Source: Pirellulales bacterium (GTDB lineage Bacteria; Planctomycetota; Planctomycetia; Pirellulales; Pirellulaceae). Taken from it: a DNA stretch of 64,000 bases. This document shows positions 2,429 to 64,000 of this stretch, in pieces (position 1 is the first letter of the stretch; every line of letters begins with the position of its first letter). The stretch spans positions 77,556 to 141,555 of the forward strand of contig JAXMBK010000012.1 in NCBI GenBank assembly GCA_046349935.1, given 5' to 3'. The position numbers and the translations under genes were made by a program. Under the pieces are notes generated by a model. The model did no database searches and had not been told where the DNA came from. It saw nothing but the letters and a program-made list of their open reading frames with translations.

Positions 2429-2908
2429 ATGACTTCGACTACTCGCTGGATCGGTCTCGTGTTCTTCCTCGTCGTCTGTCTCGGCGCCGGCGGTCTCGGG
2501 GCGCTTGCCACCACGCCTGAGATCGAGGGCTGGTACAAGACGCTCGCGAAGCCGTCTTGGAATCCGCCCGACTACGTGTTCGGTCCGGTCTGGACGACGC
2601 TCTACGTGCTGATGGCGGTTGCCGCCTGGCTGGTCTGGAAGCCGGCAGGTTTCAGAGCCGCGGCGATGCCCCTGGCTTTGTTCGGCGGGCAGGTGGTGCT
2701 CAACATCGCCTGGTCATTTATCTTCTTCGGCCTGCACCAGCCCGGCTGGGCATTTGTGGAGATCGTGATCTTGTGGCTGGCAATCGTGGCGACGACGGCG
2801 TCTTTTTTCCGCTGCTCGCAGATCGCCGGATGGCTGCTGGCGCCGTACCTGGCGTGGGTGAGCTTTGCAGCCTTGCTGAACATGGCGATTTGGCGAATAA
2901 ACGGCTGA
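2429..2908 (+). CDS. tspO: TspO/MBR (tryptophan-rich sensory protein) family membrane protein
   Basis: Five predicted TM helices. Trp-rich motifs ([40 protein letters not shown]) match the TspO/MBR family. Confidence 0.85.
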
Positions 2909-24396: not shown

Positions 24397-24922
24397 GCAC
24401 GTTCGCCTCCAGCAACTGATCCAGCAACTCCAGGAAGCGCGGCCCATACTTTTCGCTGCGTGCGTCTCCGACTCCAGCAATCGCTGTGAGGGCGGACTTC
24501 GTTCGCACGCGATTCTGCACCATCTGGGCCAATTGCTCGTTGGTGAAGACCGTGTAGATGGGAACCGCCTCCGCCTGCGAAATCTCGCGGCGTAGATCCC
24601 TTAAGCGAGCGAACACCGCGAAGTCCGCCTCGTTCAGGATCTGTTTGTAGTCCTTGCCCTTGCTCTTCCCACTCGAGACGGCGGAGGAACCGTCTCCTGC
24701 CCGGCTCAGTTCCACGTAATCAATGCAGAACGACCAGAACGAGTCGGAACCTTGCTCCACAAAGCGCCGATAAACCGCCAACACGCGATGGCTGCGCAGA
24801 AACCCATTGAGCGCGACTTCGGCCGCCTCCAAATCGCGCACCGGCACCACGAAGAACTTAAACGGCATCCGAACTCCTCGATGATGGGCCGCTCCGCCTT
24901 CCACTGCGGCGTGCCGAGGCAC
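24371..24922 (-). CDS. DGR accessory protein with HRDC-like domain
   Basis: C-terminal block VFTNEQLAQMVQNRVRTKSALTAIAGVGDARSEKYGPRFLELL resembles an HRDC domain. Lies between the target gene and the RT and overlaps the RT start. Confidence 0.6.
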   Translation of the reverse strand: MPRHAAVEGGAAHHRGVRMPFKFFVVPVRDLEAAEVALNGFLRSHRVLAVYRRFVEQGSDSFWSFCIDYVELSRAGDGSSAVSSGKSKGKDYKQILNEADFAVFARLRDLRREISQAEAVPIYTVFTNEQLAQMVQNRVRTKSALTAIAGVGDARSEKYGPRFLELLDQLLEANVHETGGESV

Positions 24923-37623: not shown

Positions 37624-37973
37624 ATTGGCGAGTCTTGGGAATGCAGTCGTAACAGACCGTGCTCCTGCCTGATTAGCGAAACCTTATCCCGCAACCGCGA
37701 AATACTCAACTACCGCCTTAAGATTTACCGGCTCCAGGAACCCGAAAAACTAAACAAGTAACCTCAGCGAAAGAAGTCAGGTCGACTCTCCAGCGAAGCT
37801 AGCCAGTCTGGACAAAACTTCATTAAACTCTCGGTCCCCTGAGGACATTGAATCGCGCTGCGGGATCTCTGGAGTACCTCCCACCCGTACCCTGTACTGC
37901 CACTATTCCAGCCAGAAATCCCCGTCACGGTTCCTGTCCACGGACAACAACCTTAGGCCGAGACCACTGATCC

Positions 37974-42611: not shown

Positions 42612-42734
42612 AGGGACGCTGTAGCGGACCTTTCGAAGTAGAATACGCAGAACATAGGTCTCACGTGCAGAGGAACAGGGCGAAGTGATTTAACCTCCGC
42701 AGTCAGCCCTCACGTTCCGCAAGCGAACAAGCCG

Positions 42735-47655: not shown

Positions 47656-48579
47656 TTACGGAGCGAGCCTGGCAGTCCGTTCCTCCAGCAGCTCTCGATA
47701 CTCGGCCTTTTGTTCGGCCGGCAGAAAGCAGCGTTCGAGCAGACCACTCGCCTCGGGCAAGGCCGCAGTCTGGGCATCCAGCACGCGGGCGGCCGCTTTC
47801 GCGGGAAGCTGGCAATACTCGGCAAACGCGAGCCAGTGCTTGCGGTCGAGGTTGTCCTTCTTGCCCAAGATCGAAAGCGCCAGAGGATCGTTGGGAATCA
47901 CCAGCCGCGTACAGACCAGGTCATACGCAGGCGTCAGCCGAATGACGCCTTGTTCATCTACGAGCAACGAGAAATTCTTGAGGTGCATGTCGCCGTTGCC
48001 GCTCCACCACACAAACACCAACAACCGATAGAACTTCTGGATTTCGATCAGCGGTTCCGAAGCGAATCGACGTACCAATTTCACGCTGCGTTCGGCCGAA
48101 GACTCGTACTTCTCCTTCGGCGACAGCTCGGCCAGTTGACAGAAATCCTCTTGCCGGAGTTTCTTACCGTTCTCCAGCCGGTCGAACCGGCGCACGATGA
48201 ACGCGAGCGAACCATCCTTGAGCGACACCAGACCGAACCGCCCCACGTCGATGCCGACAAGCTGCGCGAGTCGCGTCGTCACATGCTCGTTCTCCGGCAG
48301 CGACGGGTAAGCCTCCGTTTGCGGCTTGAGTATGAACCGCCCTGCCCCGGCGGCGACCTGGAGCGTTTCGCGGTCCGCGGAGAGATTCACCGAGATCTTC
48401 TTCTGAGCCCCTGATAACGAGGTGTGACCGACCATGGCAAGCGCTGCCGTATGTAGTCGGCCAATTTCGATCTCCAGCTTGGGCGGTCGGGCGGAGCCGA
48501 ACAAGTTGCGGACGCAGCGGGCATGATACGCTTCCCCGTCGTCAACCCATTCCAAGCAGATACGACAGGCTTCACTCAT
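47656..48579 (-). CDS. hipT: HipA C-terminal kinase-domain toxin (HipT-like)
   Basis: HipA-family catalytic motif VWWSGNGDMHLKNFSLL. Start taken at the ATG in an ATGA overlap with the upstream gene's stop. Confidence 0.7.
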   Translation of the reverse strand: MSEACRICLEWVDDGEAYHARCVRNLFGSARPPKLEIEIGRLHTAALAMVGHTSLSGAQKKISVNLSADRETLQVAAGAGRFILKPQTEAYPSLPENEHVTTRLAQLVGIDVGRFGLVSLKDGSLAFIVRRFDRLENGKKLRQEDFCQLAELSPKEKYESSAERSVKLVRRFASEPLIEIQKFYRLLVFVWWSGNGDMHLKNFSLLVDEQGVIRLTPAYDLVCTRLVIPNDPLALSILGKKDNLDRKHWLAFAEYCQLPAKAAARVLDAQTAALPEASGLLERCFLPAEQKAEYRELLEERTARLAP

Positions 48580-48914
48580 ACTCCCTCCTCCTCCGGCAAG
48601 GGAATGATCTCCACGGCGCCGACGCAATCGGCGCAGGTCGCCAGCAGCAGACCAAAGGCGTCGTCCTTGCTGATCTTCAGCTTCTTGGTTGCCAGCTCGA
48701 GCAGCCAACCCTCCGGCAGCAGGTTTTCAAAGAACGGATGGAGCCCGTCCGAAATATACGGCTCGCCACGCACTGGCAAGGTCAGCGAAACGGGGACCGC
48801 CGCCGGATTGGAGATCCACTCGGCCGTATAGCGGAACTCAACTTGCCGGCCCGTCTCGCGGAGTACACCGACGCATTGTCCGTCGAGACGAACTTCAGCG
48901 CTGCGTTTCTTCAT
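48576..48914 (-). CDS. hipS: HipA N-terminal-domain-like small protein (HipS-like)
   Basis: ~112 aa resembling the HipA N-terminal subdomain (VGVLRE...FRY...LPVRGEPY...FENLLPEGW). Start taken at the internal ATG 48914. Confidence 0.6.
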   Translation of the reverse strand: MKKRSAEVRLDGQCVGVLRETGRQVEFRYTAEWISNPAAVPVSLTLPVRGEPYISDGLHPFFENLLPEGWLLELATKKLKISKDDAFGLLLATCADCVGAVEIIPLPEEEGV

Positions 48915-49158
48915 CAGGCGTCTCCTTCGGCGCGTCGACGATCCCCAGCTGTTTGCCGAACACGGCCAAGACCTTATTGACTTCGTGAAGCCGTACCGTG
49001 CTCTTGGCCCGCTCGAGCTCCGAGATGAAACGCGTGCCGACACCCGCTAACTCGGCCAATTCTCGTTGCGATAACCGGCTCGCCTTGCGGCGGGTCCGAA
49101 CAAAGACGCTCAGCGTCTGGTGGCCGTTGCTTATCATGCTCCATTCCCGAAAGGGCAT
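48895..49158 (-). CDS. hipB: XRE-family HTH transcriptional regulator (HipB-like antitoxin)
   Basis: Cro/C1-type HTH (LSQRELAELAGVGTRFISELERAK). First gene of a three-gene overlapping operon. Confidence 0.7.
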   Translation of the reverse strand: MPFREWSMISNGHQTLSVFVRTRRKASRLSQRELAELAGVGTRFISELERAKSTVRLHEVNKVLAVFGKQLGIVDAPKETPDEETQR

Positions 49159-49498
49159 ATGCGTTGGATGCCGAGGGAATTCTACCGCGAAAAACGGGCA
49201 TATTCAAGAGAATGATCCCGAACGGGAACAGAAGACCATTCCGATGCCGAGGTTGACCAAGGCGGGGGACCGATCTTTCGATATGTTCCCGATCGGGCAT
49301 GACATTCGCGGTAACACGACGATTCGGGCGACAGCCCGCAATCGAGGAATCAGGTCATGGGTTTAAGTACTATCGGGTACGAATTGAGGGCTCAGGTACT
49401 ACCGTTTTTGGCCCCTTTTTGTATCGTTTCGCTACATCTTGCACGAGTCGCATTTTTGCTGTAACTTCCGCCCCCATCGACGGTTCTCGTTGTAACGT

Positions 49499-49562
49499 CT
49501 AGTCGGCTAGTGCAATTTGGGGTGCAAGAGGTCGTGGGTTCAAATCCCGCCACCCCGACTAG
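49499..49562 (+). other. tRNA-like remnant (D-like hairpin, T-arm GTGGGTTCAAATCCCGC, 8-bp closing stem), putative integration att site
   Basis: Canonical T-loop TTCAAAT with a 5-bp stem. An acceptor-like strand CACCCCG is closed by ctagtcgg/ccgactag. There is no anticodon arm, so this is not a complete tRNA. Lies 130 bp upstream of the integrase. Confidence 0.3.
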
Positions 49563-49692
49563 ACTTACGACGATTCCTTTTCGCAGTTGCATCAGCAAAT
49601 TGCATCACGAACCGCCCGCGAACGGCAATTCGCAGGCGGTTTGGCGAGCCTTCCGACTCGACTGTTGTTTCACACAGTGGGAGGGCTCGACG

Positions 49693-50706
49693 ATGCTTTC
49701 GGAACCATGGTTTCGTGAATTTGACGGCTGGTGGTACTGCTACGATCGCTCCAGCGGGCGACGTCGGCAGGTAAAACTCGCCAAGGGACGGGAAAACCGT
49801 GCTGAGGCCTACGATCGCTGGAGCGACCTGAGACGCGGCCGACGTGCCGTCGCCTCGCTCCACACCGAGTCGGTCGCTGCCTTGCTGGATCTCTATCTCG
49901 ACTGGTGCTGCTCGAATCGGTCGGACGCCACCTACAAGCTCTACGTCCGGCTGCTTCAGTCGTTCTGCTCCCACGTCGGCGGAAAATTCGTCGCGTCGGA
50001 TCTACGCCCCAAGGACGTCACCGCCTGGATCGGTTCCCACGACTGGTCGAATTCCACGAAGGCGACCGCCGTGCAGACGCTCAAAGCCGCCTTTCGCTGG
50101 CTGGTACGTGAGGGGCATCTCGAAAAATCGCCCGTGGCCGACGCTCGCGGCCCGGCTCGGGAGAGCCGCGAGGTGATTCTCACGGCCGACGAGTTTGCGG
50201 GAATTCTGAAAAAAGTGAAACGCGACTTCGCCAACTTGCTCGAATTCATCTGGCACACAGGCTGCCGCCCACAGGAGGCCGTGAACCTCACCGTGGCCCA
50301 CTGCGAACTTGAGCTGCGTCGCGTGGTCTTTCCCGCCTCCGAAGCCAAGGGAAAACGCCATCCCCGCGTGATCTATCTTGATGATCGAGCCTTGGAGATC
50401 CTGCGGAACGAACTCAGAAGACGACGTTCCGGAATCGTCTTCCGAACGAGGCAGGACAAGCCCTGGTCGCGAAACACGATTCGCTGCCGGTTCCGCTCGC
50501 TAAAGAAGCAATTCGGCGGGCCGCAGTACTGTGCGTATAATCTTCGCCACTCCTTCGCGACGAACGCTCTCCAGCGACTCGACCCCATCTCGGTTGCGAC
50601 ATTGATGGGGCATACCGACGCTACCACGCTGGCCCGGAACTACCAACACCTGGCGAAACTGCCCGCCGTCATGATCGAAGCGGCGAAGAAGGCGACGAGC
50701 GGTTAG
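49693..50706 (+). CDS. int: tyrosine-type site-specific integrase
   Basis: Phage-integrase catalytic region (CRPQEA, RHSFATNALQRL, LMGHTD, TLARNYQHL). Start taken at the internal Met (MLSEPWF). Confidence 0.85.
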   Translation: MLSEPWFREFDGWWYCYDRSSGRRRQVKLAKGRENRAEAYDRWSDLRRGRRAVASLHTESVAALLDLYLDWCCSNRSDATYKLYVRLLQSFCSHVGGKFVASDLRPKDVTAWIGSHDWSNSTKATAVQTLKAAFRWLVREGHLEKSPVADARGPARESREVILTADEFAGILKKVKRDFANLLEFIWHTGCRPQEAVNLTVAHCELELRRVVFPASEAKGKRHPRVIYLDDRALEILRNELRRRRSGIVFRTRQDKPWSRNTIRCRFRSLKKQFGGPQYCAYNLRHSFATNALQRLDPISVATLMGHTDATTLARNYQHLAKLPAVMIEAAKKATSG

Positions 50707-51034
50707 GGATAAGCGAGACTAGGAGAGTCTGAATTGTCTAGCTGTCAGCGGAGCCCGACTACCATCCGGCCGCGCGCCCCCCGGCGACAAGCCTCCCTTC
50801 GAATTCGGGCACTTGAAGTCAGCGTTTACTGACGAAGAGCGGCGTCTGCCACGGTCGGTTCTACGCCTGTCGGAGCGGGTGTCGAGCCGCTTCGACGTGC
50901 CGACTGCCGGACGACGCAGAGCGACGTAAAGCCCACTGGTGTTGGCATTTGAAGATCTTTCCGCACGCAAGCAGTGGGCGAGCATATATCATTAGTGGGC
51001 AGAGAGACGCCGCCAAAAATGGAGGACTCAGGAA

Positions 51035-51736
51035 ATGCTCGACGCGGATCTGACTCGCATTATCAATCGTCCGCAGAACCCGGAAGAAGTGGCCGCTGGG
51101 ATCAAATACCGTTACAACCACGCGAAACGAGGTGCGGGATCGATTCTTCCGGATTGTGAATCCGAATGCGCCCAGGAAGTGGCGATCAAGCAATTTACCA
51201 ATCCCAAGGAATACGCCAATCGACGTCACGCGGCGGCGATTGCCTTTCTCGAAGGCAAGCAAGGCGCCCTGCGGATTGCTAAGGAACGTCGGCGGTTCCT
51301 GAATGTGTCGGCACTGGCGGACGACTCCAAAGTAGCAGAGAGGATCTTCGCGGACCGGATGCCGGTCGAGTCGCCCGACGAAGAGGCGGAAGCTCGCTTG
51401 GAATGGGCCCGAGCTTATCTGAAAGAGGCACAAAGTCTCGTCAACGAGGCGCAGGAAGTCCTCGCGACTTACCTGAGCCAGATGGAGGAACATCCTCGGG
51501 CCTGGGTCACCGACTGGCTCAACGGTCAATCGGTGCCGGAAATTCGCAAATCGTCCGGGATCCCCACGACGAAGTATCGCATCGGTCAGGAAGTGTTTGC
51601 GCTCTCCCAGGTCCCGGCCATGCGGGGTCTGATCAAAGAAGTGCCGATCTTCTCGGCCGATATCTGGGAACTCTGCAACTATGGAGTTCCGCCCGTCAAA
51701 CGAATTCTCCTCACCCCTCCTTCCGACCGCGGATAG
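51035..51736 (+). CDS. ECF-type sigma factor-like protein
   Basis: Region-2-like CESECAQEVAIKQF and region-4-like WVTDWLNGQSVPEIRKSSGIPTTKYRIGQEVFAL. Immediately upstream of a kinase. Confidence 0.5.
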   Translation: MLDADLTRIINRPQNPEEVAAGIKYRYNHAKRGAGSILPDCESECAQEVAIKQFTNPKEYANRRHAAAIAFLEGKQGALRIAKERRRFLNVSALADDSKVAERIFADRMPVESPDEEAEARLEWARAYLKEAQSLVNEAQEVLATYLSQMEEHPRAWVTDWLNGQSVPEIRKSSGIPTTKYRIGQEVFALSQVPAMRGLIKEVPIFSADIWELCNYGVPPVKRILLTPPSDRG

Positions 51737-51747
51737 GTAATTCTGCC

Positions 51748-53838
51748 ATGTGCACCAACGATGCTGACCTGTTGATTAGCGATTGGTCGCAACAGCCGCC
51801 GGAAGACCTGCATGTCGATTTGGTCGTACGGCTGCAGTCGGCGGCTAATGCTTATGAGATGGCGCGAAACGCGCTCGAGCTGGCGCGTGAGATCGAACGG
51901 CCGCTCGATCTGGCGGTGCTGCTCGAACAATCGCCGCCACACTGCCAGGACGCTGTGCGGAACGCGTTTTTTGACGACCTTTTAGACTTAGAGAGCATCG
52001 AGCAGCTGCTGGTTACTGAAGCTGGCGTCAACGAGTTGTTCGGGGCGATTCCCGCTGGCGAATGGAGTTGCTTCCTCGTGCGCTATCTCGAACGGTCTGA
52101 GGGGACGATCCGGCGGGCAGCGGAACCGCGCGGCATATCGCAATTCTTCCGCCTGCTGCAACCGTACCTACGAAAGAACCTCGCTTGCGAAGCGGCGTTT
52201 TGCCAACATTTTGGACTGCTTGAGCGCGGAACCAAGCTAAAGGTTGATGAGTACGAAATTAAGGGCATCGTTGGTGTCGGCGGGATGGGAGTCGTCTATG
52301 AGGCGCGGCAGAAAGGCGGCAAATCGGTCGCGGTCAAGACGCCGCGTCCAGATTTGCTGCAATGTTTCGAGCACACACGCGAAGCATTTCTTAAGGAAGC
52401 TCATGTCTCCAATCATCTCGAAGGGGAGGGGTTAGTGCCGGTGCATTATGTCGATCGCGAGTTTCCCTTCTATGTGATGCGTCTCGTGCCCGGCGCTACA
52501 ACGTTGCAGCACCGCATGGAAGCCGGTACGTTGGACGTGCGCACTATCGGTGAGATCCTGCAATCGACTGCCCGAGGGCTGCGGAAGCTGCATCACTTTC
52601 GACATCTTCACCTCGATCTGAAGCCGTCGAACATACTTATCACCGACGCCAGCCACGCCTTTCTGACCGACTTCGGCCTCATTTGTCGTCTGTCCAACAA
52701 AGGGACAGCCAAGCTATCCCGTTTTCAGGGCACATCCCAATATGCGGCGCCCGAACAAATACGTGGTGAAACGCTGAATTTCGCGACGGATATCTACTCT
52801 CTGGGCGAAGTCGGGTTGCAAGCGATTAAGGGGATGAAGCCTGGAAAGGATCGCGAGCTTCGACACCATCTCACCGCGATTTGTAACCGCGCTCATAGTT
52901 CTGACCCGACGCGCCGCTACCAAACGGCGACCGAGTTTGAAGCGGACTTAGTGCGCTGCCTCAGCGGCGGTGTACCGTGTGTTTCTGTGAAACATGTCGC
53001 GCTGAGTTGGGCTCGTCGCTGGCGCTGGGGTATCGCAGCGGCCATGATGCTGGTCGTGATCGCGTTCGCATGGGCGCCCGCGGCCCGCGCCTGGCGGGTG
53101 CACCGGTTCTTCAGTGACTATTCTGAGATCACGGCGCTCCAGCACCATTCCCAAAAAATTGTCGGGCGCGGCGAACGCACGGAGCCGATTCCGACGGACC
53201 CTAAGGATCCGACGAAGCTCGCAGTATTGCCGGTCGATCAAGGATTTAGGATTCACGAGGACTCGCGCTTCTTTGACTTAACCGCCTGGAGACCGTTGCA
53301 AGCAGATGAACTTAAGCGCGATACGATCAATCCCTGCTATCACACACGAGCAATTACGGTCTCGAAAACCGACAAGCAGGCGCGCTGGTTACGAGTGCGA
53401 TTTTGGACTAGCGGCTATGCGGTCCATGCGTACTGTGCCAGTCACCCTTATCGAATCGCCGTCGGCTACGACGCCCACCTAGTCGGCCAGCAAATGACCG
53501 AGGTGGAAGAACTGCAGATTGATACCGAGGGCCACGAAGGAGAATTCCAGATCATCGTTCATGCGACGTTTTGGAACGCCTTTCACACCCAAGATCAGTA
53601 TTGGGCTGGCATGAACGTGCTGCACGGTACCAAGAAAGCGCAGCTGGCGGTGCTGATCGGCTATCCGTATCTGCTTGAGAATGTGTCCGAAGTGACCGGC
53701 AACGAACAGGATCCGCACGCTGGAGAACCGCGCGGTCGCGAAAACACGTCTGGACCGCTGCTGGATGTCACGGGGCCACAGTCGATGGTCCACAAACTTC
53801 AATGGAAATCTGTTAAACAGAGCTGGATCGGCTTTTAA
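51748..53838 (+). CDS. Ser/Thr protein kinase with single TM and extracytoplasmic C-terminal domain
   Basis: Kinase motifs GVGGMGVVYEA, AVKTPRP, HLDLKPSNILI, DFGL, APEQ. TM segment WGIAAAMMLVVIAFAW. Start taken at the ATG at 51748. Confidence 0.8.
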   Translation: MCTNDADLLISDWSQQPPEDLHVDLVVRLQSAANAYEMARNALELAREIERPLDLAVLLEQSPPHCQDAVRNAFFDDLLDLESIEQLLVTEAGVNELFGAIPAGEWSCFLVRYLERSEGTIRRAAEPRGISQFFRLLQPYLRKNLACEAAFCQHFGLLERGTKLKVDEYEIKGIVGVGGMGVVYEARQKGGKSVAVKTPRPDLLQCFEHTREAFLKEAHVSNHLEGEGLVPVHYVDREFPFYVMRLVPGATTLQHRMEAGTLDVRTIGEILQSTARGLRKLHHFRHLHLDLKPSNILITDASHAFLTDFGLICRLSNKGTAKLSRFQGTSQYAAPEQIRGETLNFATDIYSLGEVGLQAIKGMKPGKDRELRHHLTAICNRAHSSDPTRRYQTATEFEADLVRCLSGGVPCVSVKHVALSWARRWRWGIAAAMMLVVIAFAWAPAARAWRVHRFFSDYSEITALQHHSQKIVGRGERTEPIPTDPKDPTKLAVLPVDQGFRIHEDSRFFDLTAWRPLQADELKRDTINPCYHTRAITVSKTDKQARWLRVRFWTSGYAVHAYCASHPYRIAVGYDAHLVGQQMTEVEELQIDTEGHEGEFQIIVHATFWNAFHTQDQYWAGMNVLHGTKKAQLAVLIGYPYLLENVSEVTGNEQDPHAGEPRGRENTSGPLLDVTGPQSMVHKLQWKSVKQSWIGF

Positions 53839-53855
53839 AGCAAAGGAGCTTGTAG

Positions 53856-54617
53856 ATGATACGTACTTCGATCGTCATAGTGTTTTCGGTCACTTTCCTG
53901 GGTGCTAGTGCCTGGGCCGGTGAGATCGGACGTTTGCCGTTGCCTGGATCACTCGTGGAGTGGAATTCGTCGGAGGGTCGCAGATTGTTTCGGGAAAGCG
54001 CGTCGTGCCAAGAAGCATTTTGGTCGGTCGCTGAGCATCTGCGGCCCCAGTCGAACCTAGCGACCTGCGCTCCGACGACCGCGCTCATTGTGCTAAACGC
54101 GATGCAGCGGGACTTGCCTCAGGCCAGGGAATACGGACCGTATCCTTATTTCACAGAGGACAATTTTTTCACGGCGGAAGTCGAAGCGATCAAAAAGCGG
54201 ACCGCCGTCAACGGCAGCGGTGTGACGCTCGATCAATTGACGAAAATGCTGAGGACTCACGGTGTCGAGGCCGATGCGATCCATGCGCGCAATACCACCG
54301 TCGACAAGTTCGAGGAAGATTTGCAGAAGACGCTTTCCGGACCAAAGCAGTACGTAATTTCCAACTACTTTCGTCCCGCACTGGGTCAAAAAAGTGCCGG
54401 ACACGTCAGTGTGGTCGTGGCCTATCATGCAACCGAGCATCGGTGCTTGGTGCTCGATTGTGCGTCGTTCAAATATCCGTTCGTGTGGGTCAAAACTGCG
54501 GACCTGTTTAAGGCGATGGGGGAACAGGACGACGAGTCGAAGACCAGCCGTGGGTACATCATTGTCAAAGAGAGAGCTTCCAGCGATACCCGCTCAAGTG
54601 GCCAAGTTGAGCGCTAG
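53856..54617 (+). CDS. secreted phytochelatin-synthase-like (papain-fold, peptidase C83-like) protein
   Basis: Signal peptide. Catalytic-Cys context CAPTTALIVLNAM and a His context GHVSVVVAY, as in phytochelatin synthases. Confidence 0.6.
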   Translation: MIRTSIVIVFSVTFLGASAWAGEIGRLPLPGSLVEWNSSEGRRLFRESASCQEAFWSVAEHLRPQSNLATCAPTTALIVLNAMQRDLPQAREYGPYPYFTEDNFFTAEVEAIKKRTAVNGSGVTLDQLTKMLRTHGVEADAIHARNTTVDKFEEDLQKTLSGPKQYVISNYFRPALGQKSAGHVSVVVAYHATEHRCLVLDCASFKYPFVWVKTADLFKAMGEQDDESKTSRGYIIVKERASSDTRSSGQVER

Positions 54618-54641
54618 CTGCCCGTTGAACTACTCGTGTTT

Positions 54642-56014
54642 TCAGACGCGAGCGAGCATCGTCGCCGTGACGTCTTCCGGGAATCGGTCGTTGCGTACTA
54701 GGCCGGCGAATCGCGCGAAGATCGATCCTAAATTTCCCCAGAGCCATAGATAGGCGAGCTGGAGAAGGCTCAGAGCGTCCGCAGCTGCTCCCCGGCCCGG
54801 TTGGCATCCCTTCGGAGTGCCGATGCCGAAAAGGGCGTGCATGAGAATACCCAGGTTGTGCGCGCCAGCCGCGATCGAGTAGTGCTTCCGGACCTTGCCG
54901 ATTCCGCGATGCCACGTCCGCCTGCCGCCGCCCGTCTCCAGCAAATGCGCGAAGGTACGTTCGACCGGTTCGCTGCGTCGGCGCTGCAGTCTTCGACCGC
55001 GGTCGGTGTTCATCTGCTGACGATTCGCGCGCTCCGCTTCGTCCTTCGCCGACGAGGCGTGCCTGCCGGAGCCGGTACGCGAACCGCGCGGCGGGTTCTT
55101 CGTCTGGTGCCGCAGCTCGGGGATGAACGTTTCATACGGCGTCTCGGTCGCCATCGTTTCCAGGGTCGCGGCGGAGTGATATTCCTTGTCCGCGACAACG
55201 TCCTCAATGACGACTGCGCTGCCAGTGGAGGCCTGATGAGTCTGGGCCGCGTGGACGCTGTCTTCCAGCGTCGCGACATCCGCTTGGTTCGCCGGATAGA
55301 TCTCGGCCGCCCTGATCAGATTCGAGTCCAGATCGACAATGTGTTCCGCCTTGTACGCCAGATGCGTCGTGCCGTCCTTCATCCGTGCGATGCGGGCGGC
55401 GTCATCGATCGGACTCACCCACTCGTCGTTCGCAACTCGCTTATCCGCTCGCTGCCGATCGAAGTTGCGAATCTCGTCCGCCGTGGGCTGGCCGTCCGGC
55501 GCAACGACGCCGTTGGCCTTCATCTGTTGCGTCACGTACGCTTCCCAATCTTCGCCGGTGTCTCGTCGCACGATGCTCTTCATCGCCACGTTCGCTTCTA
55601 GCGTGCTGGAGTCCACGCCGACGGTCTTGCCATTCAGCAACTGATTCTCGCGCGCCAGCTTCAACACCCACGCGAAGACCGCATCGTGCACCTCGTGCGA
55701 AAGCCGATCAAGCAAGTGACTCAGCGACGAATGATCGGGCGTGTTCTCGCTGCGCGGGAGGCCGAGAGACGACTGGATGCCTTCGAAGTAGCCGACGATC
55801 AGTATCCGGAAATAGACGCCGGGCGGAATGCCGGCACGTCCCTTGCCTTGGACAACGGCTCGCAAAGCGTCTTGACACATCGATCGAACCCCGCTTCGGC
55901 CAGCAGTTCGTTCAGCTTCTGGCAGAACACGTGCCCGATCGACTTCGGCAGGTGATCCGCGCGCACGAACAGATCCTGCTGAATGTCGACCTTCCGTCGC
56001 CCTAACCCCATCAT
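54642..56014 (-). mobile_element. IS5/IS1182-family DDE transposase gene, frameshifted (N-terminal ORF 55799..56014, main ORF 54642..55880)
   Basis: N-terminal segment LFVRADHLPK...FDRCVKTLCEP and, in another frame, GIPPGVYFRILIVGYFEGI. DDE region with VVADKEYHS (DKGY-like). Confidence 0.7.
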
Positions 56015-56753
56015 CGCGTCTCCCTACGATCTCTGTTCTTCGAGTCGCGACAAGGATAGCGCCCGGCTCGACATTTTCAACGGGCAGCTAGGCTTATGCA
56101 GTGGTAATCCCGAGAGGCATCGACGGTGAGGTTATGCAACTTCGATCATCGCGCAACGGAGTGACTCGCCGGTTGTCACAGCGATCCCTAGAATTGGCTA
56201 ACGCAGATGTTTCGCGGGGCCTTGGGATGGTGCGATGGCAAGTTTAGATTCTTGGAAGTTCACGATCGACATTTCTGATCGAGCGGATCGCGCACGCTTC
56301 GAGCAGTTTCCCGGCCATCCTTTCGCCACGCTCTCCTACGTTCATGAGTAAGTTTGTCATCTTCGGAGCATCAGCGGATTTCTCTGCTTTGATGTGCTCG
56401 AGCAGTTGCTCACCCTCGGCGTCGCGCCCGCCTGCAAGCTACATGGACTATCTGGGAGCCAATCCGGTATCCGCCTGGTCGACTTTCTGAGGGAGCTACT
56501 GAATCATGCCGGGCGGGTTGGGCCTTGGGAGTTGGATGAATGCACGGTGAAGCACGGAACGTCCTCACACACGTTCCAGGGCTTTGTGACGGAGCGAAAC
56601 ACATTCCAGCCTTTGACTCCGCTGGCGACAATTGAAGGCGTGGCGCGAGGCTTGGACCGGTTCCTCCTCCTCGTCAATCAACATGCTGGGCCCACAGAAG
56701 CGAACTCGCCCGGCCGGAGTGCCGGGCGAGCTGGTTTGTCCGGAATCCCGCGT

Positions 56754-57050
56754 TTAGAGTTCCTTGGTGATGGAGAAGCTGGCTTCTCCCACGATGCGGC
56801 CGTTTTCGGTGCGGGCCTTGGCTTCCAGCTCCGCCTTCAGGCGCCGCTTGGCGTCTTCGTACGAGGCAGCGCCTTTCACCTCGCAGGTGATGACCTTGCA
56901 CTTGTTATCGGCGCACTTGCAGGTGGCAGTGGCCGTGCCGCGCCACTTTTCGCTTTTGGCAATCGAGCCCAGCGAGGCGCTCTGAGCCAACCCGAACCCA
57001 CCCATCACCGCCGGCAGCAGCGCGGCCGCCAAGAAACAGTTTTTCAACAT
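56754..57050 (-). CDS. small secreted Cys-containing hypothetical protein
   Basis: ATG preceded by GAAGGAG at -7. Signal peptide MLKNCFLAAALLPAVMGGFGLA. Confidence 0.55.
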   Translation of the reverse strand: MLKNCFLAAALLPAVMGGFGLAQSASLGSIAKSEKWRGTATATCKCADNKCKVITCEVKGAASYEDAKRRLKAELEAKARTENGRIVGEASFSITKEL

Positions 57051-58699
57051 TACCGGACTCCTTCAGTTCTCGGGACTTGTTCCGGGCCACGCGGCCCTCT
57101 GAGAAGTAAAGGAGGAGGGAGTAGTTGAATGCGGACAAGCGACTTGGTCCACGACTCGGCTCAATCGCGTCCAAGTAAACCCCAGCATTCCGCTGGCAAG
57201 CAGGCAGCAGCACAGAGGCAGGCTCCGCGATCGGCTGGGGCTGGGATGGAACAGGATCACGCAAACACGCCTTGAAGTCCGAGTTGTAGCGACCTCACCT
57301 GGAAGCGTCTCGATATGGAAGGGAAGCAGCGTCGTGGACATGAGCCAAGTAGCGATTCGATAACCGTTATCACCCAGCACCGGATCGCGTTACAGTTTGA
57401 AGGCATAACCCTCGGCCGGAATGTTCTTGTCTACCAACCCGTTTGACGGATCTTGCAGCTCCGGCTTGGCGCGGATAGCAAGAGTGTCGGCGTCTTGAAT
57501 GGCAAAGGTTAGGCCATCGAAGCGGTCATTCGGGTTATGACCGCACTTGGCTGTTTGGGTCAATGTTCCAGTCGAATCCTCTGGGACCGACCAAGAAGCC
57601 GACTTTTCAGCCCTTGAAGGCGATGGAGTTCGCAAAGGTTGTCGGACAGTCGCCCCAGGTGCTTACATGGCAGCCGCTGATCTGCCGTTGATGGCGAGAG
57701 CATCGTCGGCTACGCCTGCGGTGCCACGTCCGTCGTAGGTCATGACGAGTTGCCCGCAGGCGAACAAAGTTGAGACGACTGAGATGTCATGTTCGAAATC
57801 GCTGTTCTTTTGGAAGCCTTTTTCGATAATAGGTGAATGGAAAGTACCTTCCAAATCGAACATGTGGAGCGTCGCTCGGACCTGTGGAACACCGCCCCCA
57901 TCATTATGCCCATAGCCACTGTGCAAAAAAGTGTTCTTTTCATCCCGTCTCATCGCGATCAATTCGTGACGCAGGCGAATACCGACATGAGTTCATCCAG
58001 CTGCTGGTAGGCGCCACCCTCGCAGCGTGCGTCCCCCGCCAGCCTAAGAATCCGTGGCGCAACCATGCTAATTTGGTCCGTGGGTGTAGCTGAGACCGTG
58101 CCCGCTGCCGCTGCTGTTGGCCTAGTTGTGATTCCTGCAGTGGGCCGGCTCGAACCTATAAAGCACTTGGAGTGTGCTGGCAATGGCATCCGACTCCGCG
58201 AAGGCGGACTAGGTTTGATGTCTAGCGCGGACAGTTTGCTACGTGGTTCGGGAGCGACGCTGCCTTGAGCCTCGACTTTTATAAATCAGCTTCTGCGGTT
58301 CCGGATATTCCGAAAAAAAAAACGGATCACCTGCCGGCTATCCTCGCGACAACCGCTCGCCTCGTTGCGACAACTTACCAGGAGTTCATGGCACATCCGC
58401 GTGTATTGGTTCAGCGTGAACTGGAAGAACGTCTCGCCCGAGTCAGTGGGTGGTGGATGACGAGTAGTTTGCCGTGGCCGACGGATTGTAATCGGGCTTC
58501 GGAGCAGCGGCCCACAGATCGAGACCGTTTCCGGATCGTCCGCACTTGAAGCAGTGGAAGATGTGTCCGTCGAGTTGCACGGAGAAGCAGCTGCTGGTGG
58601 GCGACTTCGAGCCGTGCACCGGACAGGGACCGCGTTGCTGCGCGTCGCGCACCGACCGCGGCTGAAACTGCAGAAGTTGCAGCACGGTGCTCATCAAGA

Positions 58700-59755
58700 T
58701 CAAGCGTCGGACGGCGGCGAATTCGATCGGTCGGCGCGCTGCGGCCGCCGGCGCGGCCGGGGCGGCAGGAGCGCCGCGCTTGGTTCGCTGGGCGGCTGCT
58801 CGGCGCTTTGCCGTCGGCAACGACTTCGCTGGCGGGCCTCGGCCAACTTGCGATCGCGCGCGTCATGAATGGCCTGGTCCTGTCCAAATTGTTTGCCGTA
58901 GGGCGTGATGTAGCCGAGCGCGCTTTGGAGTCGGACCGGATTGTAGTGCTGCGCGAAATTCGCGACGAGTCGTCGCGCGTCGTCCAGCGACAGCGGCACG
59001 AAGGGGCGAATGCAATCCTGCTTGGGCGTCTTGTGCCAGCGTTCGATCCTGCCGTTGCTCTGCGGGTAGTGCGGCGACGTTCGGACGTGCGTCATGCCGG
59101 CTAGGCGCATGAACTCCTTGAATTCCTCGGCCAGGAACTGCGGTCCGTTGTCGGAAATGAAACGCGGTCGCGCGTCGGGGTACGCTTCGCGCGCCCGCTT
59201 CGGCCGGATGAACCAGTAAAACGTGCCGGCGAGGTTGAGGTAGCTGACGTCGACGTTCCAGTGTACGTGGGGCGCCAGCGGCTGCACGAACCCGGTTCCC
59301 TTCTTGGTCGGAACGGGAGTGCAGCCGGCCAGCAGACCGGCGTTTTTCAAGAAGCGGTAGACGCTGGCGGGACTACAGGCGACGACGTCGGCGTCGAGCA
59401 TCATGTAAGTCAGTCGGCGGTATTCCTCCAGCGGATTCTGTCGGGCGAACTCGACGATCCGCTCCCATTCGTCGGCGGACAGCCAATGGTCGCGCGGGCC
59501 CCAGGCGTTGTGCTCGTTGACCCGACCGAACCGCAGCTTCCAGTCGTGGAACTTGCTGGCTCCGACGCCAATCCAACCGACCAAGCGACTTTGCGGTAAT
59601 TCGGTCTTGTCGGACCAGCGGCGGACGAAGTCGACGACTTCGTCGCGAGTTTCGTGGGAAGCCCCGCGTCCCTTCAAGGTTCCCCAAGTTTTTTTCGCTG
59701 CACGTGCTCCTCCATGAGTTCGGACAGCACCTCGTTTTTCTTCAGCAGCTTGCAT
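58700..59755 (-). CDS. IS3 transposase OrfB (rve integrase core)
   Basis: DDE integrase motifs. Overlaps orfA in the -1 frame. Confidence 0.75.
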   Translation of the reverse strand: MQAAEEKRGAVRTHGGARAAKKTWGTLKGRGASHETRDEVVDFVRRWSDKTELPQSRLVGWIGVGASKFHDWKLRFGRVNEHNAWGPRDHWLSADEWERIVEFARQNPLEEYRRLTYMMLDADVVACSPASVYRFLKNAGLLAGCTPVPTKKGTGFVQPLAPHVHWNVDVSYLNLAGTFYWFIRPKRAREAYPDARPRFISDNGPQFLAEEFKEFMRLAGMTHVRTSPHYPQSNGRIERWHKTPKQDCIRPFVPLSLDDARRLVANFAQHYNPVRLQSALGYITPYGKQFGQDQAIHDARDRKLAEARQRSRCRRQSAEQPPSEPSAALLPPRPRRRPQRADRSNSPPSDA

Positions 59756-59997
59756 TCCAGGAACGGGATGCGTCGCTGCGCGGCGTCTTCGACGGCTCGC
59801 GACTTGCGATCGCTTTCGAAGGTGGCGTGGCCGTTCTCGAACAGCTCTCGCTGCCAGCGGTAGAACAGGTTGGGCGCGATGCCCAGTTCATCGCATAGGT
59901 CCGAGACGAGTACCTGCTCCAATAAATGCCGTTTCAGCACGGCCATCTTGTCCGATGGCGAGAAAAATCGCCGTTTCGAATCACGCGACTTGCTCAT
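59674..59997 (-). CDS. IS3 transposase OrfA (HTH)
   Basis: 107 aa. The LFYRWQREL motif is typical of IS3 OrfA. Confidence 0.75.
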   Translation of the reverse strand: MSKSRDSKRRFFSPSDKMAVLKRHLLEQVLVSDLCDELGIAPNLFYRWQRELFENGHATFESDRKSRAVEDAAQRRIPFLECKLLKKNEVLSELMEEHVQRKKLGEP

Positions 59998-60618
59998 GGA
60001 AGAGCTCCTTCAGGTTGTTCTAACCCAAAGCGAGAGTTATTCCAGATTCAGCTGAGGCAAAACACGCAGACTTCCGGTGAGTTCATGATGCTTCGACTGA
60101 GCAACTTAGAAGAAAGCTCAAACGGCTCAGCGGCTTGGAAACGCGATTAATGAAGCTGCGCAATTTTGTGCACGAGTGATAGAGCTCTAAGGCGATGCAC
60201 GTTACAGCGACGTTCTCTGCGCTGCAATTCGCAGACGCTGCACACTCTCCCGCTCGTTGGCACGGCGTTCCCCTTAATTACAGGGAAACTTGATCTCGGA
60301 AACTGGGCATCAGCCCGAATGACTGACAGCTCGGCTAAGAGAACGAGACAGGCAGGACGCCGATTTGGGAAAACTCGGTAAGCACGTCAACACGATTCGC
60401 GTGCGCTTAGGGACTGGAGACGGGCGGAGGCGGCACTTGCGATGCCGCCTCCAAGTCTCCGATGGTCCAAGACCGCCCGGGACACCCCATAGCGCCTCCA
60501 GTCTACCAGCCGCGCAGATCGTGAAAACCCAGACGCGTTTTTCGTGGCCCAGACCGCCCGGGACACCCCGTAGCAAGATGTCCTCGGTTGGTTTGGCCAC
60601 TTTCAAGGCCGAACCGCG

Positions 60619-61662
60619 GTGCAGCAGCGGTTCCAACTAGGAGGACGGACCATGTACGACCTGATCAATGGCCGTGCGCAACGGCCGGGACGACGGCGCC
60701 ACCGCTTCGCGCCAGACATTCTGAAGCGGGTGAAGGATAAGTGCGTGCTCGACAACTGGCACGCGATTGTCGCCCTGATCTATATCTGGGCGTTCATCGG
60801 CACGACGGTGTCGGCACCCTACCTGTTGGAGCCCTGGCTGAACTGGTGGGTAGTCTACTCAGTGTGCGTCGTGTTGATGGGGTTCTGGATGCGGGGCCTA
60901 GCCACCCTGCTGCATGAAGGTGCCCATTTCGTTCTCGCGAAGAACGCCGTGGTTAACTTCCTGGCGGCGACCGTCGGGTCGGGCTATCTCATCTTTCACG
61001 CGTTCTTTCCGTACCGCATCAGCCATCTCAATCACCACATCTACCTGGGGAACGAAGGCAAGGACCCCGACCTGATGTTCCTGATCGCGCAGGGAGTCAA
61101 CTCTGCGAAATCACGCGCCGATTTCATTTGGAAGTTCCTCATCTCGCCACTGCTGATGTTCCGCACGCCGGCGAAGATCGTGGACTTGCTGCGCTATCGT
61201 TTCTTCGCGAAGGAAGAACCTTTGGCGGAAAAGCTCGGCAAGGGGATCTTCCTGGCGTTCATCATCGGCCTGCTCATCTATCTGGGACTGGGCCGCATGT
61301 TCTTCTGGATGTGGCTCGTGCCGCTGATCACGACGTTTCCGCTCGTGGCCTGGTACGTGGAACTGATGGAGCACTTTCCGCTCGTATGGGAGAGCGACAT
61401 CGATCTCTACATGACGCGCAATCGTTGGACGGATCCGGCGACCCGCTTCTTCCTCGGAATGTTCAACGAAAACTACCATCAGACGCACCATCTGTTTCCG
61501 CAGTGCCCGTTCTGGCGTTTGCCCGAAGTCCACAAGATTCTGATGGAAGACGAGGAATACCGGAACACTCAGTTCCGGGAGGTCGGCCTGGTGGGTTCGA
61601 TCATCGAAGGCACGCCGAGCATCCTCACGAGCATCGTCGAGCGCCGGCACCGGACGGCGTAG
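60619..61662 (+). CDS. membrane fatty-acid desaturase family protein
   Basis: Three His boxes (HEGAHF, HNHHIYLGNEGKDPD, HQTHHLFPQ) and multiple TM segments. Confidence 0.8.
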   Translation: MQQRFQLGGRTMYDLINGRAQRPGRRRHRFAPDILKRVKDKCVLDNWHAIVALIYIWAFIGTTVSAPYLLEPWLNWWVVYSVCVVLMGFWMRGLATLLHEGAHFVLAKNAVVNFLAATVGSGYLIFHAFFPYRISHLNHHIYLGNEGKDPDLMFLIAQGVNSAKSRADFIWKFLISPLLMFRTPAKIVDLLRYRFFAKEEPLAEKLGKGIFLAFIIGLLIYLGLGRMFFWMWLVPLITTFPLVAWYVELMEHFPLVWESDIDLYMTRNRWTDPATRFFLGMFNENYHQTHHLFPQCPFWRLPEVHKILMEDEEYRNTQFREVGLVGSIIEGTPSILTSIVERRHRTA

Positions 61663-61777
61663 GGGCTCTATGTGCCAACTCTTGTGCCGGCAGATCACCA
61701 CAGATCTGCCGGCCGTCTTGCGTCAATCGCAATTCAATTAGAGAACAACTACTAGTCATCTACTTGGGATAGCGACA

Positions 61778-62203
61778 ATGGATAAGCCTGCAAAAAAGTT
61801 CGCGATCGTGATCAAAGCCGGCGTTCAAGCTGGCAAAGCAATCAATATGGCCTCTCACTTGAGCGCCGAACTCGGCTCGCTGGCTCCGGAACTCGGCGGC
61901 AAGGAAGTGCTCGACGCCTCGGGGGTGAAGCACGCGGGACTTCCGATTTACCCCAATGTGATTTTGGCGGCGTCGGCCGAGGAGTTTCCGCAGGCGGTCG
62001 CCAAGGCCCGGCAGATGGCTGACACCGCTGAGGTCGTCTTCCTGGATTACCCAGAGGAAGGTTTCACGACGAGCACCGACGAAGCCTATCGCTCCGCCAT
62101 CGCGCTGCTCTCGACGGAGGCGATCGTCGTTCAAAGCTTTCTGGTCTATGGACCGCGTTCGCTGGTGAACGCCGTGACGAAAGGACTCATGCTCTGGAAG
62201 TAG
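61778..62203 (+). CDS. hypothetical protein (DUF2000-like)
   Basis: 141-aa ORF followed by a clear terminator. Weak resemblance to DUF2000-type proteins. Confidence 0.4.
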   Translation: MDKPAKKFAIVIKAGVQAGKAINMASHLSAELGSLAPELGGKEVLDASGVKHAGLPIYPNVILAASAEEFPQAVAKARQMADTAEVVFLDYPEEGFTTSTDEAYRSAIALLSTEAIVVQSFLVYGPRSLVNAVTKGLMLWK

Positions 62204-62232
62204 GCACGATGCTGATGGTGGAATGCACTGCG

Positions 62233-62261
62233 GGCCGGTTTTTGTCGAACCGGCCTTTTTT
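62233..62261 (+). terminator. Rho-independent terminator
   Basis: Perfect 8-bp stem ggccggtt/aaccggcc with a 7-nt loop, followed by TTTTTT. Confidence 0.65.
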
Positions 62262-62389
62262 GCGCCAAGGCGGCGACGGCCCCTTTCCATCCGCGGAACC
62301 CTTCGGCTCAATCCCGCAAGCTTTTCGAATGTTACCGGCGCGTGCCGGTCCGCGTGGAAGCGATGCATGCTTGTCGGCATGCACTGCCA

Positions 62390-62745
62390 AGGGGAAACCG
62401 CATCCCCGCATGGTCTACCTTGATGATCGAGCCTTGGAGATCGTGCAAACCGAACTCAAGAGGCGACGTCCCGGGATAGACTTTCGGACGAGGCAGGACA
62501 AGCCCTGGTCGCGAAACACGATTCGCTGCCGGTTCCGCTCGCTGAAGAAGCAATTCGGCGGGCCGCAGTACTGTGCGTACAATCTTCGCCACTCCTTCGC
62601 GACGAACGCCCTCCAGCGACTCGATCCCATTTCGGTCGCGACATTGATGGGGCATACCGACGCTACCACGCTGGCCCGTAACTACCAGCACCTGGCAAAA
62701 CTGCCCGCCGTCATGATCGAGGCGGCAAAGAAGGCGACTTCGTGA
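62390..62745 (+). pseudogene. duplicated 3' fragment of the tyrosine integrase gene (C-terminal ~117 codons only)
   Basis: ~90% nucleotide identity to 50350..50706, including the RHSFATNALQRL and LMGHTDATTLARNYQHL codons. No integrase N-terminal region upstream. Confidence 0.75.
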
Positions 62746-62825
62746 TCGATTGGATGCGCCAGCGTTCCAGCAAGTGATGGGCTGGGATGCCGAGACGCTG
62801 GCGCGGGATGGGTGGCGTATTCCTC

Positions 62826-63620
62826 TCACATGAAGGTTGCCAGCTTGACCACAATTAGCGCTATGGTCGAGGCCATACTCGCTACCGTTAGGAATGTCTT
62901 GACAATTCTAACGCCCCTATCAGTCCCAAAATTTGTGGTGTTGGTCACTAGAATCGAAACAAAAAGAAGAACAAAAAGTAGTTTTCCAAGTGCAAGAAGT
63001 GCAGAAATAACGCCCTTCGCAACGAGATTGCCGCTAGGGTCGATTAAGTGGCAGTAATAGGCGGGAGGCTGGCAGAGACCGTAAGCGAGGCATAGTGCCC
63101 AAATGTAAGTCGCAAAGGGTGGAAATTGTTTCGAAGCCGAATAGGCAAGAAAAAGAAAGCCGCATGTCGCTAGGATCATTCCCGGTGCAGCGACGAACAT
63201 TCGCCAAGCTGGACTGTCGAATGGAAGGTGTTTTCCAAAAATGAGATTCCACGACACCAGCGTCAGGGTTCCAGCCGCCAGATACGCAGAGAAATGCCAT
63301 AGAGTTGGCACCTTGTCTTTGGGCATTAGGGACCACGCCGTCGCAATCAATGCGACATTCGCAAATCCGTCAAACAGCAGAAGTAACCAGTAATTCGCAA
63401 CTGGGTCAGTGATGAGGGAGTACACCACAAGAAGCTCTAACCACCAGCCCATCCAGAAGACGACGCCGGCTGGCACGCCCGGAAATACATCGCTCAGTTC
63501 AATGGTCTTTGATTTGATGGCAAAGGCGAGTGTTCCCCAGGCAATGGCTACTACCATTATTGCCGCGATGTAAATATTTGCATCTGCAATTTTTTCGTCG
63601 ATAAATCGAATGGCGTTCAT
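62826..63620 (-). CDS. polytopic membrane protein, hypothetical
   Basis: About 8 hydrophobic helices. Lower-GC segment than its surroundings. Confidence 0.5.
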   Translation of the reverse strand: MNAIRFIDEKIADANIYIAAIMVVAIAWGTLAFAIKSKTIELSDVFPGVPAGVVFWMGWWLELLVVYSLITDPVANYWLLLLFDGFANVALIATAWSLMPKDKVPTLWHFSAYLAAGTLTLVSWNLIFGKHLPFDSPAWRMFVAAPGMILATCGFLFLAYSASKQFPPFATYIWALCLAYGLCQPPAYYCHLIDPSGNLVAKGVISALLALGKLLFVLLFVSILVTNTTNFGTDRGVRIVKTFLTVASMASTIALIVVKLATFM

Positions 63621-64000
63621 GTTGAATGATCGATTTTAGAAGGGTTTGGTGACGGGGGCGTTCGCGAGAATGCACAAGCGATTTAGTCGAGCATGTATTT
63701 CCAATGCCAAGCCTTTCGCCTGCGATTAGAAGTGCGAGCTGGCGATATCGTCGCGTGACTTTCGGTAGTTCGTGCGAGGTGTCCTTGGATGTTGGCGTTG
63801 TAGTAGGGGGGCCTTCGATAAAGAACTGACCGTGAGTGCCATTCTGAAGGGGCTGTGAAACGCAAGCTTTAGTTCTTGTAGTGGAAATGCCACGACCCCA
63901 CACGTGGTGGTGTGGTACCCTTAAATTCGCGGGGATCGCTTGGATTCTGATTTTTGTCATGTCGAGCTAGGAAATTCAACTACCCTCGAACGGCGGATTC

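Follow-up and report, generated by a model that had tools for sequence, protein, structure and literature searches.

The window, a 64,000-nt stretch of a Pirellulales contig, carries from position 49517 rightwards an integrated mobile element that is probably a composite, formed when two related elements of the same tRNA-Pro site, here called B and C, were joined by site-specific accretion and an internal deletion followed. The reading is carried by an intact integrase, int_B, and a 5'-truncated integrase fragment, int_C', that have the same orientation 12 kb apart, by a tRNA-derived attachment (att) core in front of int_B, and by the different nearest relatives of the modules, int_B being closest to the integrase of the related locus L023 and the excisionase-like gene and backbone beyond the fragment closest to L001.

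The tyrosine integrase int_B (49693-50706, + strand; 337 aa; MFO0905769.1) proved intact, as the initial annotation had proposed. It matches the Phage_integrase profile (PF00589) with 68.1 bits against a cutoff of 27.1 (Pfam E=1e-18), and in the alignment with relatives the catalytic residues R192, K219/K221, R285, H307 and Y317 were found. At the first His of the H-x-x-R motif int_B has N283, most relatives having H there, and the closest solved structures are of XerC/XerD type. The amino acid identity is 99% to the integrase of L023 and 92% to that of L001, and over the P' arm and int_B the nucleotide sequence shares 96.4% identity with that of L023.

Also the recurrence of the integrase 3' end about 12 kb away, earlier put at roughly 90% identity, was borne out: 50344-50696 recurs at 62386-62738, covering 353 bp with 91.5% identity (blastn E=4e-144). 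The sequence search found no further copy of the rest of the int_B gene in the window. The fragment int_C' (62386-62745, + strand) includes residues 218-336 only and is annotated as a protein of 124 aa (MFO0905781.1), the open reading frame (ORF) scoring 38 bits with the same profile. It lacks R192 and the entire N-terminal half, and because of the missing R192 it would not be active alone. According to the multiple alignment the true homology begins at AKGKPHPR, and the part of the ORF in frame upstream of 62383 is not integrase-like; an extension of the homology to 62215-62305, given by gapped tblastn, was ruled out by this alignment.

The two integrase sequences differ at 30 of the 353 positions, 22 of these at third codon positions (4/5/22 by codon position), and the differing codons include 19 synonymous and nine non-synonymous ones. 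The third-position bias rules out a recent copy and indicates that both genes diverged under selection, in separate elements, and int_C' appears to be the remnant of a once functional gene from a second, related element, diverged under purifying selection. The fragment is moreover closer to the L023 integrase (93.2%) than to int_B (91.5%).

The att core (49517-49558, + strand) is the 3' half of a tRNA-Pro(GGG) gene, beginning with the anticodon loop TTGGGGT and ending with the discriminator, and it is identical over 42-45 nt to the intact tRNA-Pro(GGG) genes of L001 and L012-L019. When the 42-nt core was scanned against 185,579 species genomes, eight matches were obtained, all eight being intact tRNA-Pro(GGG) genes in other Planctomycetota metagenome-assembled genomes (MAGs), with the similarity to the window ending at the tRNA 3' end. 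These eight loci have neither P' arm nor integrase downstream and represent unoccupied target sites, although in different species and therefore not as same-locus synteny. Every relative matches the window only from 49517 onwards, the tRNA-Ala loci L006/L007 from 49523, and for the 40 nt before 49517 the resemblance to a tRNA 5' half does not exceed that of random window segments or of shuffles (p~0.4), a chance-level alignment score that rules out a decayed 5' half upstream. Because the similarity of all relatives begins at the anticodon loop and the upstream DNA is not tRNA-like, 49517 is best read as a clean site-specific recombination junction within the loop and not as the edge of a decayed tRNA. 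The tRNA 5' half is absent at the locus, only the element-borne 3' half being present.

The initial annotation had described a T-arm/acceptor-like minihelix at this position, of which the tRNA-like stretch stands and the minihelix or remnant does not. As the intact tRNA-Pro(GGG) of L001 is matched only from the anticodon loop onwards, the apparent 5' acceptor strand consists of the GGG anticodon and its neighbours, and the supposed strand GGGGTG is the anticodon followed by tRNA-Pro positions 37-39. A relaxed Rfam scan gave a transfer-messenger RNA (tmRNA) match at 49518-49561 with 21.9 bits against a gathering score of 47 and with 324 model positions deleted; a tmRNA or functional minihelix was ruled out there by the same identity of the 5' strand. 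ARAGORN, which had been suggested as a check for a tRNA gene, found no tRNA or tmRNA across the whole window, and Rfam at gathering thresholds found nothing. Neither was the expected pair of flanking repeats present: no second core copy was detected in the window and its 1.8-kb extension (described below) at ≤3 mismatches over 30 nt, not even as an exact 11-mer, and there were no core repeats near 62200-62400 and 62750-62850. The right-hand attachment site, attR, may lie further right on the 244,761-nt source contig; in the loci of the relatives no attR copies were found within the 10-kb flanks. The more general proposal of an integrated mobile element targeting a tRNA gene is supported by the identity of the core and by the relatives located beside intact tRNAs.

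The core is followed by the element-borne P' arm and integrase leader (49559-49692, + strand), conserved in the relatives. The arm includes, all on the + strand, CTAGACTTACGACGA directly after the core (49559-49573), tandem TTGCATCA motifs (49586-49607), a conserved hairpin (49610-49641) and an invariant 22-nt motif, GCGAGCCTTCCGACTCGACTGT (49644-49665), and the leader has also a ribosome-binding site. This arm of about 130 bp is kept in relatives with integrases just 56-73% identical, located at tRNA-Pro(GGG), tRNA-Pro(CGG) or tRNA-Ala(GGC), and among the 12 hairpin copies compared there were compensatory changes at eight of the ten pairs. A unit of about 60 nt, formed by the GC-rich hairpin and GCGAGCCTTCCGACTCGACTGT, occurs as a direct repeat bracketing the integrase and the cargo slot behind it in the window locus, L001, L023 and L006, this bracketing arrangement being mildly unusual. 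The second unit of the window locus is found at about 64245-64300 of the extended sequence, some 250-300 nt past the window end (L025 215-292, - strand of that contig), and those of the relatives at 16353-16427 in L001, 1152-1226 in L023 and 4785-4859 in L006. In L002 and L003 the unit is present upstream of the integrase only. The unit could be a terminator, an operator or a site of cargo exchange.

Judged by its sequence, int_B belongs to an integrase family that is confined to Planctomycetota as far as sampled and that is predicted to use the anticodon loop of a tRNA-Pro or tRNA-Ala gene for recombination. The layout of the family, drawn from the context of about ten independent relatives, consists of the tRNA, the P' arm with the hairpin and motif, the integrase, a variable slot, an HTH_17 gene (Xis/AlpA-like) on the opposite strand and small ORFs, which often include Prim-Pol and once, in L010, a TraG-like gene. 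The tRNA directly upstream of the integrase is Pro-GGG in L001, Pro-CGG in L002, L010 and L022, and Ala-GGC in L006/L007. An adjacent tRNA with its 3' portion supplied by the element was found in L001, L002, L006/L007, L010/L011 and L022, and the canonical tRNA of these relatives would thus combine a host 5' half with an element-carried 3' half. In the sub-lineage nearest to the window, L001, L023 and L006, the second unit separates the slot from the 3' end of the HTH_17 gene. Measured from the integrase stop to this unit, the slot has 0 kb in L023, 2.1 kb in L006 (with DUF4365) and 5.3 kb in L001 (with Peptidase_U49, LmuB_C and others), L001 being the closest relative with full context. The integrase of L001 (10001-11013) is split into calls of 269 and 85 aa by an apparent frameshift near residue 245 and is either a pseudogene or affected by a sequencing error.

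The same junction form was seen in two viral contigs of IMG/VR, L026 (25 kb) and L027 (37 kb), in which non-tRNA DNA is followed by the tRNA-Pro(GGG) 3' half from the anticodon loop, CTAGACTTACGACGA and a 397-aa integrase. The site is located at 480-500 (- strand) in L026 and at 2856-2876 (+ strand) in L027, with a Prim-Pol/AAA_25 primase-helicase downstream of the integrase. The junction in these contigs would be of attP form, the same as that at the left end of the window element, and the phage-like relatives appear to use the same tRNA-Pro(GGG) target and junction sequence. Viral scans with the integrase and with a 19-nt motif gave no match, the curated phage and plasmid collections included no family match at E≤1e-10, and the metagenome scan with the integrase produced three short loci only. 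No description of the integrase family was found in the literature on Planctomycetes islands. Two further loci, L008 (9751-11005) and L009 (5705-6959), have a 56%-identical integrase and the conserved P' arm, with only 'CCGACT' of the tRNA end upstream. No tRNA was detected at these two integrase loci, and upstream of the integrase there are a serine recombinase, ParB/RepB genes and defence-like genes; they may represent a different target site or another stacked array.

To the right of int_C' the order of accessions on the source contig is the fragment (MFO0905781.1), a 264-aa ORF (MFO0905782.1) and an HTH_17 gene (MFO0905783.1, P0249; 81 aa, - strand), the last lying past the window end and found with the HTH_17 query of L023. 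A candidate excisionase or directionality factor is thus located two accessions after the fragment, and it has 88% amino acid identity to the HTH_17 protein of L001, named 'excisionase family DNA binding protein' by JGI, and 76% to that of L023. Logan contig L025 is 100% identical to 62649-64000 of the window and continues 523 nt beyond it, and Logan contig L024, which shares 528 nt with L025 at 100% identity, contributes another 1309 nt. The two contigs extend the sequence by 1.8 kb past 64000, including the second unit, the HTH_17 gene (- strand) and backbone ORFs with 85.7% identity to L001 16364-17958. They come from two other sequencing runs and confirm 62649-64000 and what follows, neither the 49517 nor the 62386 junction being covered. 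Since the second unit, the HTH_17 gene and the backbone genes follow one gene beyond the fragment, the element runs on to the right past the window end, int_C' not forming its boundary.

The cargo slot of the window locus accordingly extends over about 13.5 kb from the int_B stop codon to the second unit, and int_C' is a scar within the slot. As with all relatives, similarity to L023 and L001 ends at the integrase stop codon, and this is also where the cargo starts in L001 and L006. The first part of the slot (50707-62385) has 11.7 kb; no HTH_17, Prim-Pol, small backbone homologues or second motif were detectable in it, and over the whole of 50707-64000 neither family backbone genes nor a second motif were detectable.

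The history that probably led to this arrangement would have begun when element B, with an L023-like integrase, integrated site-specifically at the tRNA end of element C, which was already resident and had an L001-like backbone; a tandem array would have resulted. A deletion would then have taken the xis gene and backbone of B, the internal att core, the P' arm of C and the first ~650 bp (two-thirds) of int_C, fusing the cargo of B to the remainder of C, and the insertion sequence (IS) elements would have inserted later. The composite would keep one complete integrase, one att core and one set of xis and backbone genes, and it could be mobile as a single unit. At least two integrases of the same orientation at one site, as expected of a tandem array, are represented by int_B and int_C', and serial integration at the same site, proposed from the outset, remains the best reading, the third-position-biased divergence pointing to a second related element.

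Several points weigh against this history. The internal att core, a remnant of the B backbone and attR are not visible in the window and its extension, so that the tandem stage is reconstructed. Upstream of int_C' there is no core or P' arm, and their deletion has to be assumed. The breakpoint at 62386 has no IS end or repeat to explain the break, and none of the about ten other family loci has a comparable integrase scar. The left 49.5 kb of the window includes no intact tRNA and no second family element, so that a tandem partner on the left would need either a length above 49.5 kb or a different family. The sequence comes from a MAG contig, the junctions at 49517 and 62386 resting on its assembly and not on reads.

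The same end product would be obtained without a tandem stage if a module made up of the core, P' arm, int_B and cargo had recombined with a resident element C in one step, one crossover being located at or to the left of the att core and the other joining the two illegitimately within int_C, the 5' part of which would thereby have been replaced. Around the variable slot, the best-conserved anchors are the integrase 3' end and the second unit, and the lack of any surviving trace of the B backbone or the internal att site also fits such a replacement. It is nevertheless an unlikely course of events, as no homology at the 62386 breakpoint would drive the recombination and the documented route to such arrays is site-specific integration into an occupied tRNA site.

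A slightly lower probability is given to an assembly artefact, in which the contig would be chimeric at the att core, at the 353-bp integrase repeat or at both, or threaded through reads of an excised circle; the attP-like left junction, or the order of integrase, slot and fragment, would then be absent from any one chromosome. The origin of the sequence from a metagenome would allow this, excised circular copies would contribute just such an attP-type junction, and the Logan contigs leave both junctions to the one assembly. The integrase copies differ, however, at so many positions (30 of 353) that assemblers would not collapse them, and two other assemblies give the order of fragment, 264-aa ORF, unit and HTH_17 gene with 100% identity. 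Nor can a path through the circular form account for the unrelated, unique DNA that fills the left 49.5 kb.

It is rather doubtful that the hairpin and motif unit is a dedicated recombination or regulatory site for capturing and swapping cargo, loosely integron-like, with int_C' as a by-product of such exchange and not of a random deletion. A related point is that the attP-form left junction would turn the left 49.5 kb into a large mobile island of its own that shares the tRNA-Pro site in a stack.

The boundaries first drawn, a discrete island of about 13 kb (49499-62745) ending in the integrase with its tRNA remnant and in the integrase fragment (62390..62745), have become very improbable. 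The integrase-derived sequences do form direct repeats 12 kb apart, with IS elements and accessory genes between them, but beyond the fragment come cargo, second unit, HTH_17 gene and backbone of the family itself, the int_B family does not use integrase coding sequence as an att site, and no att core repeat flanks the region. Least credible is that the integrase 3' end was duplicated locally in a single element, for instance by an IS or through a replication error, and then drifted: orientation, contig and the nearby IS elements would agree with it, but the 8.5% divergence is concentrated at third positions, unlike that of a dead copy, and the fragment is nearer to the integrase of L023 than to int_B.

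In the accretion history, the left junction calls for an explanation of its own, since it has the form of attP or of an internal att site ('attI'), mildly unusual in a chromosome-like contig. The break falls exactly at the crossover region, which makes a random deletion unlikely. Most likely the rebuilt tRNA later took up another element, large or unrelated, which is now located on the left side, although this inferred event is the weakest part of the account. In the left 49.5 kb no intact tRNA, tRNA 5' half, further tRNA scar, or second integrase or element of the family was found.

The att core is abutted by a three-gene hipBST-like toxin-antitoxin module (47656-49300, - strand), which lies outside the element proper but marks out its attP-like left junction. 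It includes a HipA_C kinase-only ORF (47656-48708, - strand; annotated 307 aa) and a separate Couple_hipA/HipS-like ORF (48576-49043, - strand), and a 108-aa upstream ORF completes the module. The HipA_C kinase has many relatives of about 306 aa at 65-90% identity, mostly metagenome sequences, a few of them from Pirellulales MAGs. Further to the left, 8305-47417 forms a dense block of genes of signalling and conflict type. These include Peptidase_C14 (caspase)-FGE-sulfatase fusions (8305-10356 and 24992-27529), a DUF4384-caspase gene (13750-15138), a TGase_elicitor-DUF4384 gene (15196-17094), a 1444-aa WD40 protein, and FHA and GYF proteins. Three large Ser/Thr kinases with double zinc ribbons (34780-47417) also belong to the block, and two of these carry fused FGE-sulfatase domains. 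A stand-alone reverse transcriptase (23407-24480, - strand; RVT_1 E=3e-17) is located between the WD40 giant and a caspase-FGE gene.

The gene content first listed for the slot was recovered with regard to the kinase, the phytochelatin-synthase-like protein, the two IS elements and the desaturase. The supposed extracytoplasmic function (ECF) sigma factor was not: the 233-aa ORF at 51035-51736 matched no family in Pfam, NCBIfam, PADLOC or PHROGs. It is followed by the Ser/Thr kinase (51748-53838) and the phytochelatin-synthase-family protein (53856-54617; E=3e-56). A complete IS with a DDE_Tnp_1 transposase (54614-56091) has perfect 16-bp inverted repeats, CTAGCTGCCCGTTGAA; as seen at 54610-54620 and 56076-56091, it is inserted exactly at the end of the phytochelatin-synthase-family gene, the TAG stop of which falls in the terminal CTAG of the IS. 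The second IS, an IS3-like orfAB (58700-59997, - strand), has no clear inverted repeats. An IS-mediated origin of the breakpoints was ruled out, as neither IS abuts 50706 or 62386.

The FA_desaturase gene (60619-61662) matches its family profile and is GntB-like, its best NCBIfam score being that of GntB, the L-arginine gamma-hydroxylase of the guanitoxin pathway, with 274 bits and thus below the cutoff of 380. Upstream of it there is a 27-nt direct repeat (60467-60493 and 60548-60574, 93% identical). A DUF2000 gene (61778-62203; MFO0905780.1) is followed by a terminator hairpin (62233-62262), and unassigned ORFs are also present in the first part of the slot together with the IS and kinase genes. 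The second part within the window (62746-64000, - strand) includes the hypothetical protein of 264 aa (62826-63620; MFO0905782.1). The mixed GC content earlier ascribed to the region is weak, with 0.587 in 50707-62385 against 0.604 in the left 49.5 kb; only 62746-64244, reaching into the extension, is clearly lower (0.511).

Mobile elements of Planctomycetota are poorly described, and a coherent integrase family emerges from the window locus and its relatives, with tRNA-Pro(GGG), tRNA-Pro(CGG) and tRNA-Ala(GGC) targets, a strongly conserved P' arm and a cargo slot behind the integrase as its hallmarks. For annotation, the 124-aa 'tyrosine-type recombinase' MFO0905781.1 is to be treated as a pseudogene scar and not as an island end, and the tRNA-like stretch as an att core and not as an RNA gene.

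Integration sites in tRNA and tmRNA genes have reportedly been ordered by Williams in a 'sublocation' scheme (2002, Nucleic Acids Res). The int_B family resembles the elements targeting the anticodon loop of tRNA genes in that the gene of the tyrosine integrase adjoins the target tRNA, the stretch from the anticodon loop to the 3' end of the tRNA is borne by the element and restores the gene on integration, and an excisionase-like HTH_17 partner is present. It differs from them in the missing tRNA 5' half at the window locus and in the restriction of the family, as sampled, to Planctomycetota.

Satellite-like defence islands of the P4 type are approached by the small family backbone of integrase, Xis/AlpA-type HTH and Prim-Pol, and by those relatives that have defence genes right behind the integrase, namely LmuB_C (Lamassu), Peptidase_U49, DUF4365 and GmrSD. 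Unlike in such islands, the cargo of the window locus (the kinase, the phytochelatin-synthase-like protein, the desaturase-like hydroxylase and DUF2000) includes no recognised defence system, and capsid piracy or a helper relationship, a feature of satellites, is not known for the int_B family.

Site-specific tandem accretion and deletion have been described in arrays made up of ICEs (integrative and conjugative elements), integrative and mobilizable elements (IMEs) and cis-mobilizable elements (CIMEs), with ICESt1/ICESt3 of Streptococcus thermophilus as examples, and a chimeric internal 'attI' site in IME_Sag2603_tRNAlys (PMC5704250). In contrast to those arrays, no relaxase, coupling protein or other conjugation gene was seen in the window locus, a TraG-like gene being present only in L010; the internal att site between B and C would have been deleted, and the outer att sites lie outside the window. 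The likenesses consist of a stack of related, equally oriented elements at one tRNA site, internal decay to a composite that keeps one integration module, and the form of the junction at 49517, which corresponds to an 'attI' site combining the far end of one element with the integrase-proximal arm of the next. Every component is already of a known kind, from the anticodon-loop integrase and its HTH_17 partner to the cargo hotspot and the accretion followed by deletion. The locus would thus offer a clear case, from an under-sampled phylum, of an island growing through accretion and deletion, a real but ordinary finding that leaves the current understanding of such arrays as it stands.

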